A stretch of DNA of 64,000 bases from contig OZ242180.1 of the NCBI GenBank assembly GCA_965205485.1, positions 640,001-704,000 on the forward strand, given 5' to 3'. Of the stretch, positions 12,001 to 18,000 are shown piece by piece (within the stretch, counting starts at the first letter, position 1; every line of letters starts with the position of its first letter). This DNA is from Candidatus Latescibacterota bacterium (lineage in GTDB: Bacteria; Latescibacterota; UBA2968; GCA-2709665). Position numbers: made by a program.

Positions 12001-15000
12001 AGTCATGCAAAACCTGCACGAACGGCGTCCTCTATCATCCCTCGTACGCCTGCTGCCCCATCTGCGGCAGTGAATTGCAACCGGATTACGACAGCCCCCC
12101 TCTGAACGAGCTGGACCCCCACGGCCTGATCTGGGGCATCTCGAACAAAGAAGAAACCGCCGAAGAGGGCGAAGACCTCTTCGGCGGCGGCGGTCCGCTT
12201 GGGTAGGATCGGTCCGAACCCGTCATTCCCGCTTCCCTTTCACAAACCCTCGCCCATATCGAATTCGAAGTTATTCTCTGCGTCGGCAAGCGCTGGGAGT
12301 TCCAGGTCCTTTCCTGACAGGATCGGATCGGATACCGGCCAGTCGATGCCGACGGCCGGATCGTTCCACAGGATGCCCCGGTCCAGGTCGGGCGCAAACT
12401 CCGCCGTGACCTTGTAGACAAACTCCGCCTCGTCGCTCAGCACGCAGAACCCGTGCGCAAAACCCTCCGGAACGTAGAACATCCTGAAATTCCCTTCCGA
12501 CAGCACAACCCCCTCCCACTTTCCGAAGGTGGGCGCATTCCTGCGGATATCCACGGCAACGTCGAACACCTCGCCCCTGACAACCCGCACCAGCTTGGCC
12601 TGCGCCGCGGGATGCAGTTGATAGTGCATTCCCCTCAGAACGCCCCTTTCCGAATGGGAATGGATATCCTGTACGAACTCGGCGGCAATTCCGTTGGCCT
12701 CGAAATCCGACTTCTTGTAGGACTCCATCAGAAAACCGCGACTGTCCTCGAAGACCCGGGGTTCAACCAGAATAAGGCCGGAAATTCCCAGTCTTTCGAA
12801 CCTGAACGGCATACAGTTTCCTTTCGAGGCAAGTCCGCACGACCCGGATCATGACTTCCGGGACGTCGCCTGCTTCCATTCTTCCTCGTCCACGTCCAGA
12901 CGTTTCAGCAGAGGTTCCCACCACGCCCGGTTATCGGTGTACCAGAGCACCGTCTCTTTGAATCCGCGTTCAAATGAAATTTCCGGACGCCAATCGAGTT
13001 GCGTGCGCAGCTTGTTCGAATCGAGAAGGTATCTGCGGTCGTGTCCGGGGCGGTCCGGAACGTAGACCTTGTGGGATCGGTCCAGCCCGAGTACATCCAG
13101 AATGGTGTCCGCGATCGTCTCCACGTCCACCTCCATGCCGCTGCCGACGTTGTACGTCTCCCCGATTATACCCCGTTTCAGGATCAGGTCGATCGCCCGG
13201 CAATGGTCCTCCACATGCAGCCACTCCCGCTTGTTCCGGCTGCTCTTGTAGAGCGTCATCTTCTTTCCGTCGAGCAACTGCGTGACGAACAGCGGGACTA
13301 CCTTTTCCGGGAACTGATACGGCCCGTAGTTGTTCGCGCAATTGGAAATCGTAACCGGCAACCCGAACGTGAGATGGTACGCCCGAACCGCCAGATCGGC
13401 CGCCGCTTTCGATGCGTTGTAAGGCGTACGCGGCTGATACGGGTCCGTCTCCGAAAAGCTCGCTTCAGAGTCCAGCGGCAGGTCCCCGTAGACCTCGCAG
13501 GTGGAAATGTGGTGAAACCTGGGCACTCCTGCGTCGTGAGCCGCCCGCAGGAGACGCTGGGTCCCAAGCACGTTGGTTTCGAAGAAGACGTCGGGATTGA
13601 CCACAGCGCGGCTGTTGTGCGACTCGGCGGCGAAGTTCACGATGCAGTCCGGCTTGTGCCGCTCGAGAAGGTCCCGCGTCATCCCGTAGTCGCCGATATC
13701 GCCCTGAACGAACTCGTACCTGCCGGCACAGGCGCCGGCCACGTCGGCCAGGTTTTCCGGAATCCCCGCGTACGTGAGCAGATCGTAATTGATGACGGTG
13801 TCGTCCGGGTACCTGGACAACCAGTACCGAATGAAGTTCGATCCGATGAACCCTGCCCCGCCCGTCACGAATATCCTGCCCATATTGGACCCCTATAAGA
13901 ACAATACCCCGGTTAAAGCCAGGTACGCCCCGTACATCGCAAGCAACACGACGCCCTCGAGCCGGGTCAGCCGGTGCCCTGTGCGCATCATGATGAGCAT
14001 CGCGAAGACGATCACCAGCATCGCTGGAAATGAAAAGTGGATTACCTTTTGCGTCACCACGAGCGGATTGACCACCGCGGATGCGCCGGCGATCCAGCAG
14101 ATATTCAGGATATCCGCTCCCAGGATATTGCCGACCACAATCTCGCCGTGCCCTCTCCTGGCAGCCGTGACCCCGGTGGCGATCTCCGGCAACGACGTGC
14201 CGATGGCAATCACCGTAAGCGCAATCACCGCTTCGCTGACGTCCAACGCCTTGGCGATGACCACGGCGGATTCCACGATAAAATGACTCGAAATCAGCAC
14301 CCCCACCAGCCCCACGCAGAACCAGAGCATCAATGTCCCGAGACCTCGACCCTCAATGGACGCTTCGATCTCCCTGAGATCCTCCATTCGGTTCCCTTCG
14401 GCCTTGGATGAACGACTGCGCGTGACATAGGTAAAGACCGTGTATGCCACGAAGAGCAGGAGCAGTACGCCGCCCTCGATCCGGTCCAGAGTACCGTCGA
14501 ACGCCATCGCGTAAGCCGCCAGGTCCACGACGATCAGGAAGATCCCTGTCGTCCACAGCAGAAATGGATTGATGAGGATGGGCGACCCGGCCACGAGGAC
14601 GCCCAGCGCGAGCGCGACGCCGTCGTCCACGATCACCGACCCAATGGCGTTTCCAAGCGCCATTTCAGGATGGCCCTCGAGTGCGGCAAGCACGGAAACG
14701 GCCAGTTCGGGCGAGGTCGTCGCCAGGCTCACCAGCACGATGCCGATCAGCATTTTCGGCACATTCAGGTACTCGGCAATCCCTACGGCTCCGTCCACAA
14801 ACCAGGACGCGCACTTGGAAAGCACCACGAAACACACCGCCAGAACGCCGACTGCAACCGTTATACTCATATAAAACAATCCTTTATTAGTCCAAACAGA
14901 CACTCACCATCTGGCCCGTGCAGGGGGCTCCGACGACGGTGGCGAAACGCGCCGCTCATCTGCCGGCCACCCGCGCCACCCAGATGCTGAATTCGTAGAG

Positions 15001-18000
15001 CAGCACCAGCGGCAGCGCCATCATCAGCTGGGAGATCGGATCCGGCGGCGTGAGCAACGCCGCCAGTACAAAGCCGATCACCACTGCATACCTCCTGCCG
15101 CGGCGCATCAGTTGCGCGGTCAGCAGGCCGATCCGGCTCAGGAAGAACGCCGCCACCGGCAGCTCGAACACGACGCCGAAGGCAACCAGCAGTCTCAACA
15201 CGAAACCGATGTAGAAGCCGATGTCGAACTGCGGGTCGACTCCGGTCCCTTCGCCGATCAGAATCAGGAATCGAAAGGACAGCGGCACCACGCTCACGTA
15301 AGCGATAGCGCCACCCAGGACAAAACAGATCGACGATGAAAAGACGATGAAAGATACGTACCGCCGCTCGGTTGTCAACAGACCCGGCGCAACGAAGATC
15401 CACAGTTGATACAGGAGAACCGGCAGCGCCAGGACCGCGCCGCCAACAAGGGCGATCTGAAGTTTAACGAGAAACATCCCCATTGGTTTCAGATAAATCA
15501 GCTTGACAGGCGGCTCAACGGGCGCCACCCCCAACAGCTTCATGACCGGGGTCGCCTCCCGGACCGGCAACACGAGCCACCCAAGTATATTGTCAGAAAA
15601 TATCCCGCAGATCACCGCGCCCACAGCGAGCGCGGCCAACCCCTTCAGCAGACGCCAGCGGAGTTCCTCCAGATGGTCCAGAAAGGGCATCGGTCTGTCG
15701 TCTGCGCCCGAAGCCGGTTCCGGCGCGGGTTCCGCGGACATGTCCGAATCGGGGGGCAGAATGGAATGCTCTGCAACCACCGCGCGACGCCGGAAGGCCA
15801 TCAACACCAGGACCGCGCCCAGGACCAGGCAGAGCTGCGAGAAAAGGTCTCCGTTTCTCGTATAAAATGTCTTTGCGGTTCGCGGCGTCACCCCCTGAGT
15901 CAAAACTGCCGGATGGAAGATCCCCGTTGTCCCCGACTTCCGTCCCCATGCGTCGATAAACGTGGAAACGCCGGTGTTCGCGCAGCGCACAACCGCCCGC
16001 CGGTTCTCAATGGCGCGAAATACCGCGGCCTCGGCGTGCTGAAAGGGTCCGGAGGTCCGACCGAACCAGCCGTCGTTGGTGATGATCACCAGGAATTCAG
16101 CGCCCAGATCCACGAATGACCTGACGAATCCCGGAAAGACCGAATCGTAACAGATCAACGCGGAAAATCGCGCGCCGGGGCCGTTGAAGACCGTGCGGGT
16201 CTCTCCGGAATCCCAGTTCCCACCCACGAATCCGCCGCCGGTGAACCGGATTTTTCGCAAAAAGGGAAGTATTTCCGGGAACGGCGCCCGTTCGCCGAAG
16301 GGCACCAGGCGAGTCTTGTCGTAGTATCCGGAGATCCCCTTTCCGGGCACGAACAGAAAAGAGGAGTTGAACACCTTCACCGGTTCGCCGGCTTCCAGTC
16401 TGTAGGCACCCGTATAAAGGTAGATGCCGAGCGAGTCCACCATGGCCTGCACCCGCTCGCGATGGCGCCGGTACAGCTCCCCTTCAAGGTAACCGACCGC
16501 CGTCTCGGGCCACACGACCAGCCGTGCCCCCTGACTCGCGGCTTCCGCGGTCATCGGCTTCAGTTTGCCGAAATTATAGTCGAATCCCCGGTATTCCTTG
16601 GCCACCGGGGGCATATCCGGCTGGACCAGGCCCACCGCCACGGCCTGTTCGTCCGGATCGTTCTTCAACGCCAGATACCCGTTCGCCGCCGGTCCCGCAA
16701 AGAGTACGGCCAATGCGGCTGCCCACACCCGGCGCCGCGCCCGGTTCCTCCAGAGCATCATGATGCTCAGATTGACAAGCACAATCCAGAACGACACCCC
16801 GTACACGCCCGTAACTTCCGCGTACTGGATCAGCCTCAGATAGGCCGTCTGCGAGTTTCCCAGCACCACCCAGGGAAACCCCATGTCGCCCAGAGAGTTG
16901 AAATACTCGAACCCGACCCAGAGGAAGGGCGCGCTCCACATCCCCGCAATGCCGTACCGCCTGACCACGCGGGCGAACGTCCACAGGAACAGTCCGCGGA
17001 ACAGGGACATGTAAATCGCCGCCCCGGCCATGCCTGGCGGCGTGATCGATCCGATCCAATAGAGTGTCGTCCCGTAGAAGAAAATCCCCTGGACGAACCC
17101 GGCGCCGAAGGCCTCCCGGCCGCGCACCCGTTCCGCGGAGAACAACAGCGGAATCAGCGCGACGTAAGACAGGAAGCCCAGAGGCAGCGGTGGAAACGCC
17201 GCGCCGAGGACAAGGCCCGAGACCGCAGGAAACAACACCATCCATTTCCAGTCCGTTCCCTGTCGTGCCTCGGTCATCGTGCCTTTTCCTCCGAACCCGC
17301 CTGCCGGAACGTCGCCGGCAGCGGTCTGAAGATTCAGATTGGATTAAAGAAAAACCGGTTGGCCGCAAGCTGTGAGTCCCGCCAACCGGAATGGTTGAAC
17401 CCCACCCAAAAATCACGTTAGAATATAAACGAACGGACCCTTTTGTCAAACCGGTACCATGGCCTCCCCTTTGCTTGACAAGCCAGGGGGATTTCCATAA
17501 TTTCCGTCCACATTTCATCCCCATTAACCCTGTGATTCATCGGTATCCTGACAGTGCTTCCCCATCTCGACACGGAGCTGGACAGTCTCAGATCCCACGG
17601 GCTCCACCGCAGCCTCCGCCTCGTGGAGGGTGCGCAGGGTCCCCGGGTCCGCATCGACGGCAAAGAACGCCTCCTTTTCTGTTCCAACAACTACCTCGGG
17701 CTTGCAAACCACCCGGCGCTCAAGGACGGCGCGGACGCTGCGCTGCATTCGTACGGATTGAGCGCTGCTGCCTCCCGGCTCATATCCGGAAACATGGAAC
17801 CCCACCGGATACTGGAACACCGGATGGCGCATTTCCTGGGTACGGAATCCGCACTCTGCTTTCCCACCGGATACATGGCGAACCTTGGCGTCGTTAGCGC
17901 CCTCGTCGGCGCTGAAGACGCAATTTTCAGCGACCGACTGAACCATCGCAGCATCATCGACGCTTGCCGGCTCTCCCGGGCGAAGACGTTCGTCTATCGC

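Follow-up and report, generated by a model that had tools for sequence, protein, structure and literature searches.

A recurrent natural fusion of apolipoprotein N-acyltransferase and TatC in Latescibacterota

Introduction

The enzymes that modify bacterial lipoproteins have been studied singly: a 2020 review finds that how they interact functionally has been addressed little if at all, and it dates the suspicion that they are coordinated to 1982 (PMC8048626). Apolipoprotein N-acyltransferase (Lnt) of Escherichia coli (PDB 5N6H, 5VRG, 8AQ4) is a two-domain enzyme with a Glu-Lys-Cys catalytic triad (PMC8689077). In Mycobacterium tuberculosis Ppm1 (Rv2051c), Lnt is followed on the C-terminal side by polyprenol-phosphomannose synthase, a pair that is described as fused in one lineage and as adjacent genes in relatives (PMC3460810). 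On the side of the Tat pathway, TatB-TatC fusions that are reported to support Tat transport arose spontaneously during mutagenesis of E. coli (PMC5102672). Here we analyse a locus of Candidatus Latescibacterota bacterium, located in a 64,000-nucleotide stretch of contig OZ242180.1 (the window), in which Lnt and TatC are encoded by one gene. A literature search found no paper on an Lnt-TatC fusion, with the proviso that subscription papers and supplements could mention one; public records label such proteins after Lnt or as hypothetical protein, so that their TatC part can be missed.

The fusion gene and its two halves

The survey's finding that Lnt, a proline-rich acidic linker and TatC share one 773-residue frame, and that this frame holds the genome's sole tatC, stands up to closer inspection (Table 1). 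Both equivalog cut-offs are passed, by the Lnt half with 318 bits against 132.9 for TIGR00546 and by the full-length TatC half with 198.8 bits against 132.7 for TIGR00945; the Pfam TatC domain (residues 534-756) covers model positions 1-208 of 208; and the translation contains the motifs WPET, YDK..LVPFGE and ICYDS of Lnt along with HLEELRWR, FELP and TPPD of TatC. The fusion is the single TatC match in the genome and, among seven nitrilase-family matches, the only Lnt above the cut-off. About 14 membrane helices are predicted in the chain. That a single open frame encodes a complete Lnt and a complete TatC is confirmed as a real feature. Could an assembly or sequencing error have erased a stop codon? 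The genome is a metagenome assembly, and nothing else speaks for such an artefact; it is refuted, to the point of being hardly worth entertaining, by the occurrence of 59 fused loci in different assemblies, by the presence of the Lnt catalytic domain in 118 of 120 long TatC proteins among the matches listed, and by contigs from two public runs, one of which may be the source sample, that read across the junction without a single difference or indel.

Table 1. Features of the lnt-tatC locus (positions in the window)
Feature	Position	Strand	Basis or remark
lnt-tatC fusion gene	14956..17277	-	ATG start, 773 aa, uninterrupted frame; the genome's one Lnt and one TatC
Lnt N-terminal membrane domain, residues 20-170	16768..17220	-	Pfam LNT_N
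Lnt nitrilase-fold catalytic domain (CN_hydrolase), residues 216-448	15934..16632	-	Pfam
Codon of catalytic Cys C376	16150-16152	-	triad E258, K321, C376
Last Lnt transmembrane helix, residues 478-495, then basic RRR stretch	15793..15846	-	RRR probably on the cytoplasmic side
Acidic/Pro-rich linker, residues 498-528	15694..15786	-	predicted disordered; pLDDT <50 at 499-527
TatC region, residues 529-773	14959..15693	-	Pfam and alignment to E. coli TatC
Sigma-70-like promoter match, 11/12	17422..17449	-	some 145 bases ahead of the start codon; agreement with the consensus only
Calcium/sodium antiporter-family gene	13893..14903	-	downstream, same orientation
rfbB- and rfbC-like dTDP-sugar genes	12240..13883	-	downstream, same orientation
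Terminator-like hairpin	near 12156-12188		ends the rfbB/rfbC-like stretch
Class II aminotransferase gene	17554..18717	+	upstream, divergent

The Lnt half shares both domains, the fold and the triad with the E. coli enzyme, from which it differs in that the chain runs on into TatC. An eight-helix membrane domain and a nitrilase-like domain are present according to Pfam and to the structure model with its Foldseek match over about 510 columns, from which the helix count is taken (E 4e-25 and TM-score 0.82 by target to known Lnt). Residues E258, K321 and C376 align with E267, K335 and C387 of E. coli Lnt and are invariant in all 92 aligned fusion proteins, whereas the position of E. coli Glu389 is occupied by Asp378, an aspartate found in 51 of the 92 that represents the form of the order. 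This half would thus be expected to N-acylate diacylated lipoproteins; no alternative enzyme of the Lnb type was found in the genome. LolA is also encoded.

The TatC half shares its fold with Aquifex TatC (4B4A; TM-score 0.90) and its signal-binding residues with references that include the E. coli and Nitratifractor TatBC/TatAC trimers (9DZZ, 9E02, 9E07). Conserved are H535, E538, F628, L633, E637, E705, T743, D746 and Q750, equivalent to E. coli H12, E15, F94, L99, E103, E170, T208, D211 and Q215, so that four of the five positions of the signal-peptide binding set H12/E15/F94/Y100/E103 are kept (H535, E538, F628, E637). The fifth, Y100, is replaced by leucine, as it also is in 29 of 35 unfused relatives. 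The fusion further departs from known TatC in the replacement of M205 by alanine, in the eight-helix enzyme on its N-terminus and in having a single TatA partner: one TatA was found in the genome (one PF02416 match, scoring as TatA/E), encoded in a different operon from the fusion, and no separate TatB was detected there, with the caveat that a TatB divergent enough to fall below detection would be missed. A single TatA without TatB is likewise characteristic of nearly all of the class. In line with the six proteins previously reported to carry a strict Tat motif, 6 twin-arginine signals exceed the TIGR01409 cut-off and 7 are found at E<=1.

In 12 pairwise comparisons dN/dS is 0.05-0.17 for the Lnt half and 0.03-0.17 for the TatC half; purifying selection acts on both domains. 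Given this constraint and the sole-copy status, TatC probably exports folded proteins while fused.

Distribution and repeated origin

The fusion had been described as fixed across the order UBA2968, and this is what we find: each of 53 genomes has one copy of TatC; in 52 the open frame measures 713-841 aa, and in the remaining one a 506-aa frame lies at a contig edge. To place this in a broader context, 121 loci were compared, those of 120 of the 162 TatC-positive genomes of the phylum and of the window; 59 are fused, 35 have lnt and tatC separate but near each other, and 27 lack Lnt in the stretch examined. The adjacency of lnt and tatC is retained in 92 of 100 loci of the class, in which the placement of lnt next to tatC, mostly with overlapping stop and start, is ancestral. 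In 29 of the 35 unfused junctions the ATG or GTG of tatC lies at -20..+4 of the lnt stop; 12 are ATGA overlaps, and 4 are in frame, one codon past the stop, these last belonging to sisters of a fused clade.

In a tree of 47 of the 92 rows, branches with support of at least 95 force at least 4 changes of fusion state. A single clade of all fused rows is rejected (p-AU 1.5e-6), as are a single clade of the fused rows of family f4 (p-AU 1.6e-6) and the grouping g30+g31 (p-AU 0.017), in tests on 28 rows for which the groups were named after the first tree was viewed. On the evidence of these trees, the fusion was fixed on three or four occasions at the least. The mixture of fused and adjacent genes that the survey had noted in family f4 is indeed present and goes back to more than one fusion event, each starting from two genes that overlapped. 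The unfused pair of families f3 and f4 comprises the orthologous Lnt clade and TatC in the same order and spacing, but as two chains, and most such genomes retain a second, ancient Lnt paralogue that is missing from the order. The notion that fusion tracks the loss of this second Lnt was discarded, because it holds for the order only; the fused f4 clades retain two.

Outside the class, the fusion was sought in capped lists of matches, beyond which a distant case may lie. When 1.84 billion representatives were searched with a profile, only 2 of the best 150 covered both halves, both from clusters of this class. Among 80 of 548 TatC loci, 15 are fused, each of which either belongs to a close relative or carries the label Latescibacterota, Gemmatimonadota or unnamed bacterium; lnt upstream of tatC is absent from the loci of Calditrichota, KSB1, Marinimicrobia and Zixibacteria among these 80. 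No Lnt was found in long TatC frames of other classes (G133, G156, L215, L235).

Linker and chain integrity

Comparison of the junctions identifies the linker as the native C-tail of Lnt joined to the acidic N-tail of stand-alone TatC. Across the 59 fusions it measures 16-116 aa, with repeat expansions; its identity is 12-13%, against 37-64% for the domains, and its dN/dS in the 12 pairs is 0.15-1.7. Together with the predicted disorder, it looks like a flexible, weakly conserved tether.

Does the chain persist in one piece? The gene could be fused while the linker is cleaved, or translation restarts at the Met of MPFLDH (M530), with Lnt and TatC ending up as free proteins. The disorder of the linker would fit, as would the fact that the codon equivalent to M530 is ATG in 58 of the 59 fusions and that the PDB chains of Aquifex TatC start at the MPFLDH motif. 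However, unfused TatC keeps the same Met 16-70 residues into the protein, so that this residue is structural; a Shine-Dalgarno-like word precedes it in just 12 of 59, mostly formed by E/G codons and not consistently; Ile takes its place in one fusion; and no cleavage motif is conserved across the origins. We consider such splitting improbable; the chain probably stays intact, and its halves would lack a fixed interface.

Tat substrates

The census of signal peptides employed our own gene caller and patterns, and its counts are rough. About 100 genes of the genome encode a lipobox, about 16 being expected by chance, which leaves about 85 lipoproteins; nearly all of those predicted appear to be of the Sec type, and about 3 are Tat-type lipoproteins with a convincing Tat signal. 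Of the 7 Tat signals of the genome, 3 are accompanied by a lipobox. The Tat substrates with the widest distribution in the class are lipoproteins: 18 of 20 members of the MsrP/sulfite-oxidase family, 10 of 10 ActB/QrcB-like proteins and 6 of 7 DctP. A first count of lipobox Tat signals, 39/79 in the class against 1/20, looked significant, and with more genomes the numbers by hits became 39/82, against 10/41 in other non-f10 classes and 0/37 in f10; once homologues were counted once, the enrichment was gone (9/33 families against 7/28, p=1.0), and we rejected it as support for coupling. In fused genomes 25/56 Tat signals bear a lipobox, a fraction that does not exceed the 14/26 of unfused ones. 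Mutual-information covariation over 92 fusions, with an effective depth of about 27, amounts to phylogenetic noise and is uninformative: inter-domain pairs make up 18 of the 60 strongest and 41% of the full set.

Possible explanations of the fusion

What could the fusion be for? The reading that we favour, with a probability of roughly 60%, is a permissive and repeatedly fixed read-through fusion, in which an uncut chain provides 1:1 synthesis and loose co-localisation via the tether. In the ancestor of the class, lnt would have stood immediately before tatC with stop and start overlapping, such that one small indel or stop loss sufficed; the fusion would have arisen because the adjacent genes overlapped and both joined ends were cytoplasmic and unstructured. 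To judge from its intact triad and fold, the Lnt half would take an acyl chain from a phospholipid and, in the periplasmic leaflet, attach it to the N-terminal cysteine of lipoproteins, and the TatC half, with intact binding residues, would bind twin-arginine signals and join the single TatA in a two-component translocase. The tether would connect the halves on the cytoplasmic side, as the predicted topology suggests, and up to three Lnt might loosely surround each TatC trimer. Substrates of Lnt, mostly Sec-exported, would still arrive by lateral diffusion, and the gain would be small (co-expression, local concentration) rather than substrate channelling. This permissive reading draws support from the overlapping junctions, the repeated changes of fusion state, the variable linker between two constrained domains, the distant lgt and lspA and the lipobox counts, and also from fusions elsewhere of Lnt to alpha/beta hydrolase, PAP2, SNase and LEA_2 domains, from N-tails that reach 170-200 aa on the TatC of family f10, and from the functional TatB-TatC chains of E. 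coli, in which, as here, read-through of adjacent genes puts a membrane protein on the N-terminus of TatC; those are laboratory alleles (engineered or from mutagenesis) of a true Tat subunit, whereas lnt-tatC is natural, fixed and involves an enzyme of another pathway. Several observations count against it: the conserved adjacency of the genes; the lipoboxes on Tat signals of the genome and the lipoprotein nature of the Tat substrates of the class; the fairly tight linker of the order (30-55 aa, mostly 31-35); the single-chain structure model of the whole protein, whose pTM of 0.69 leaves room for preferred packing; and the four origins in one class, without any clear return to the split state among all 53 genomes of the order, which exceed what is seen in neighbouring pairs. 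Judged by frame length, none of 128 genomes has a fused DUF4321-tatA, pssA-DUF4321 or tatA-gatA, although the spacing and topology of these pairs differ from those of lnt-tatC.

An alternative is that Lnt docks outside the TatC trimer and finishes Tat-exported lipoproteins (MsrP, ActB-like, DctP) on site, with Lgt and LspA perhaps recruited non-covalently, and operon and repeated fusion as selected marks of a complex. Repeated origin followed by fixation, class-wide adjacency, the fact that the core Tat substrates are lipoproteins and the lipobox excess by hits would all fit, and there is a precedent in M. tuberculosis Ppm1/Ppm2, fused there and reported to interact as separate proteins (PMC3460810), although that partner is a soluble glycosyltransferase whereas here it is a translocase core whose interaction with Lnt is hypothetical. 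Against this stand the lack of enrichment per family and the likeness of fused and unfused genomes; the step of Lnt comes third, after Lgt and LspA, whose genes are megabases away (fusion at 0.66 Mb of the contig, lgt at 2.12 Mb, lspA at 3.35 Mb); classes without the lnt-tatC link have the same lipoprotein substrates; the fused Lnt, as the only one of the order, must also serve Sec lipoproteins; and linker length spreads seven-fold. On balance we regard docking as unlikely, and similarly doubtful is its stronger form, a novel complex in which Lnt, seated along the rim of a TatC trimer in a TatB-less translocase, acylates folded, cofactor-loaded lipoproteins as they emerge. If true, this would be the first case of a translocase physically joined to an enzyme that matures lipoproteins, and selection would have favoured it on at least three or four separate occasions. 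Of the survey's proposal that Tat export is tied to lipoprotein maturation, the covalent tie between Lnt and the Tat core survives, provided that the chain is uncut; functional coupling is not supported, considering the variable disordered linker, the unlinked lgt and lspA, the Sec-type lipoproteins and the lack of excess lipobox-bearing Tat signals in fused genomes. Alternatively, the upstream helices of Lnt might target, insert or stabilise TatC, the fusion being selected for the yield of TatC and not for lipoproteins. The lone TatA without TatB, in this genome and nearly the whole class, and the separate operon of tatA are what one would expect, but a single TatA is equally present in unfused relatives, and other classes maintain stand-alone tatC without lnt, which makes this a long shot.

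A natural Lnt-TatC chain, with fused and unfused sister alleles about a stop codon apart, renders coordination testable for the Tat route. Furthermore, an essential-type TatC trimer seems to accommodate three bulky membrane enzymes at its N-termini, which bears on rim-of-core models of transport. Should the tether be neutral, the locus would still be a clean example of recurrent fusion from overlapping genes.

Gene neighbourhood

Of the flanking genes, the aminotransferase adjoins the fusion in 28 of 29 loci of the order, and the antiporter gene, found beside it in 14 of the 121 loci, is conserved in part of the order and not beyond.

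The fusion gene and the state of its two halves

The lnt-tatC gene is a single open frame of 773 aa, running from ATG to TGA, and its product scores 318 bits against the equivalog model of Lnt, the apolipoprotein N-acyltransferase, and 198.8 bits against that of TatC, the core receptor of twin-arginine (Tat) export, both above the curated cut-offs. The survey's finding of a full Lnt joined to a complete TatC, in what is the only TatC of the genome, is thus upheld by both models, by three Pfam domains and by the absence of a second TatC match; the fusion is also the only Lnt above cut-off. 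The genome is one contig (97% completeness), and contigs of two public runs span the junction with 0 differences. Lgt, LspA and LolA are present in one copy each, unlinked to the fusion, and a search of the genome for an Lnb-type acyltransferase found none. The sole TatA-family gene lies 3.1 Mb from the fusion and scores as TatA/E, so that the host Tat system looks two-component.

Both halves look alive. Residues E258, K321 and C376 align with E267, K335 and C387, the catalytic triad of Escherichia coli Lnt (PMC8689077), and are invariant in 92/92 aligned fusions, picked from the query and the 120 long TatC proteins among the matches listed. The signal-binding residues of TatC named in PMC13323110 map to H535, E538, F628, L633 and E637; the single difference, Leu for Y100, recurs in 29 of 35 unfused relatives. 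The AlphaFold2 model (mean pLDDT 82.9, pTM 0.69) contains both folds, with residues 499-527 disordered, and Foldseek matches it to E. coli Lnt and Aquifex TatC. When relatives were compared in 12 pairs, dN/dS ranged over 0.05-0.17 in the Lnt domain and 0.03-0.17 in that of TatC; the short linker gave 0.15-1.7. From the known topologies of the Lnt C-terminus and of TatC (for TatC, PMC13323110), and from the basic residues past the last Lnt helix, we infer that both joined ends are cytoplasmic.

Distribution and origin of the fusion

The fusion had been described as fixed across the order UBA2968 and as mixed with adjacent separate genes in the sister family f4, and both statements held. Each of 53/53 order genomes carries one TatC, in a long frame, and one Lnt (one of these split at a contig edge). 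In a survey of 120 TatC loci from 162 TatC-positive genomes of the phylum, plus the window, the genes were fused in 29/29 order loci, whereas f4 showed 30 fused, 33 separate and 5 without Lnt in the stretch, family f3 of the same class 2 separate-adjacent and 1 unlinked, and the other classes Lnt upstream of tatC in 0/21. Beyond the phylum, tatC is preceded by glyA, nrdR, rnfA, meaB or tatA (28 upstream genes scanned). An Lnt catalytic domain occurs in 118/120 long TatC proteins among the matches listed (120 of 243), and in a profile search of 1.84 billion representatives only 2 of the best 150 covered both halves. On these searches, the fusion seems confined to this class, among the matches listed.

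In a concatenated-domain tree of 92 rows, from which two rows with partial Lnt were omitted along with any row lacking an adjacent Lnt, the fused rows fall into four groups: one is the order, another is genus g30, and the remaining two are subclades of genera g25 and g31. Well-supported branches force at least four fusion-state changes (47 rows), a count that does not separate gain from loss. Topology tests on 28 rows under LG+G4 reject a single origin of all fusions (p-AU 1.5e-6) and a single one within f4 (p-AU 1.6e-6), and weakly reject a joint origin of g30 and g31 (p-AU 0.017). Because f3 and all other classes are unfused, three or four gains are the simplest reading. The mechanism is visible in the overlapping or abutting lnt stop and tatC start of unfused junctions: tatC starts at -20 to +4 from the lnt stop in 29/35, with an ATGA overlap in 12, and in the four unfused g25 genomes it lies in frame, one codon past that stop. 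The linker, 16 to 116 aa across fusions, consists of the Lnt tail and the acidic N-terminal tail, mostly 16-50 aa, that stand-alone TatC already possesses. Class Lnts form two ancient clades; the fused one is the tatC-linked clade, and the order is without the other.

Persistent adjacency (retained in 92/100 class loci), recurrent fusion and the lack of any reversal in the order weigh against pure chance. Pointing the same way, as an imperfect control, three neighbouring pairs in the tatA cluster (truA-degS-pssA-DUF4321-tatA-gatA) are fused in 0/128 genomes, by frame length. This cluster, with psd optionally before pssA, is the class-wide setting of tatA, and in many f4 genomes tatA precedes a co-oriented lnt-tatC by 7-15 kb.

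Is Tat export coupled to lipoprotein maturation?

The Lnt-TatC fusion is real, conserved and repeatedly evolved, and joins two known proteins; it is apparently unpublished, with no account of it among the papers listed by the literature searches. The nearest precedent is Mycobacterium tuberculosis Ppm1, an Lnt fusion whose partner has a gene of its own next to lnt in relatives and interacts with Lnt (PMC3460810). E. coli TatB-TatC read-through fusions arise and function (PMC5102672), and archaeal Tat lipoproteins occur without any Lnt (PMC6098224).

The survey's finding went further, holding that Tat export is physically tied to lipoprotein maturation. If the chain stays uncut, Lnt is covalently tied to the Tat core; a functional tie fares less well, since fused genomes are no richer in lipobox Tat signals and Lgt and LspA are unlinked. 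Lnt is the third enzyme of the pathway, and Lgt and LspA act before it. In a rough signal-peptide census, lipobox genes of the host number about 100, where chance would give about 16. Its convincing Tat signals number 7 to 9, and 3 of them, on MsrP, on a DctP and on a protein of 1015 aa, carry a lipobox. Lipoproteins would therefore make up a third to a half of its small Tat load, yet about 97% of the predicted clients of its sole Lnt are Sec-type. Among the best Tat signals of 15 class genomes, the lipobox share showed no effect of fusion (unfused 14/26, fused f4 12/28, the latter from 30 of 48 matches taken, order 13/28). By hits, the class appeared enriched in Tat lipoproteins (39/82, against 10/41 in other classes and 0/37 in family f10, outside the class), but the excess disappeared when families were counted (9/33 versus 7/28 in other classes).

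We favour, at a probability of roughly 0.6, a flexible tether that arose from overlapping genes and whose benefit, through co-synthesis and proximity, would be modest at best. That Lnt truly docks on TatC, with hand-off of substrate, is unlikely. TatC is a trimer with transport placed at its rim (PMC13323110 and PMC13186574), so an intact fusion would set up to three Lnt there. Covariation between the domains was uninformative. Still less probable is that Lnt and TatC exist as separate products.

Features of the lnt-tatC locus and of related loci (window coordinates, residues of the fusion, or coordinates within the named stretch)
Feature	Location	Strand	Remark
lnt-tatC fusion	window 14956-17277	-	
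LNT_N (Pfam)	residues 20-170		
CN_hydrolase (Pfam)	residues 216-448		
TatC (Pfam)	residues 534-756		
Residue 378	window 16144-16146		Asp for usual Glu, two residues past catalytic Cys, in every order-type Lnt inspected
GNAT-like acetyltransferase gene	window 20811-21452 (region)	-	apparent frame change near 21100
tatA	L002:1438-1659	-	single copy in nearly all class genomes
lnt and tatC apart (genome G066)	L178:10236-11756	+	several kb apart; nitrile-hydratase-like genes and other inserts between
Second Lnt, f4 genome	L159:696-3131	-	C-terminal alpha/beta-hydrolase domain
Second Lnt, f4 genome	L167:1018-3390	+	C-terminal alpha/beta-hydrolase domain
Second Lnt, f4 genome	L164:696-3161	-	C-terminal alpha/beta-hydrolase domain
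Second Lnt, genome G116	L163:2236-5499	-	about 585 additional N-terminal residues
TatC, record named Caldithrix sp.	L230:3465-5510	+	continues into 400-aa C-terminal domain; one genome only
Host MsrP	L387:522-1580 (contig 1926021)	+	Tat signal ends in lipobox, then long Glu-rich spacer

Other Lnt and TatC variants

Lnt has further fusion partners elsewhere: alpha/beta hydrolase, PAP2 (N-terminal, P0189), SNase (P0194) and LEA_2 (P0251) domains, while two proteins of 826-842 aa (P0146, P0153) carry about 330 C-terminal residues without an assigned domain. The hydrolase domain of the three second Lnts of f4 is Abhydrolase_6 or PGAP1-like in Pfam and, at a guess, possibly handles the lyso-phospholipid released by Lnt. 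The extra N-terminal stretch in G116, with no further Pfam match, could be either a chance open frame or another fusion.

TatC of f10 (L136, L137, L138, L142, L150) has an N-terminal extension of 170-200 aa with a short motif in common and no Pfam match. The Tat load there is very large, 36-49 signals per genome at E<=0.01 and 98 at E<=0.3 in genome G142, with a lipobox in none of the 37 inspected. The additional domain of the Caldithrix TatC presumably resembles quinolinate synthase, going by eye. In the GNAT-like gene, one ORF holds the N-terminal half followed by unrelated sequence, the remainder lying in another frame. E. coli MsrP is a soluble protein, unlike the lipoprotein-type MsrP of this class, in most members of which the Tat signal ends in a lipobox as in the host.
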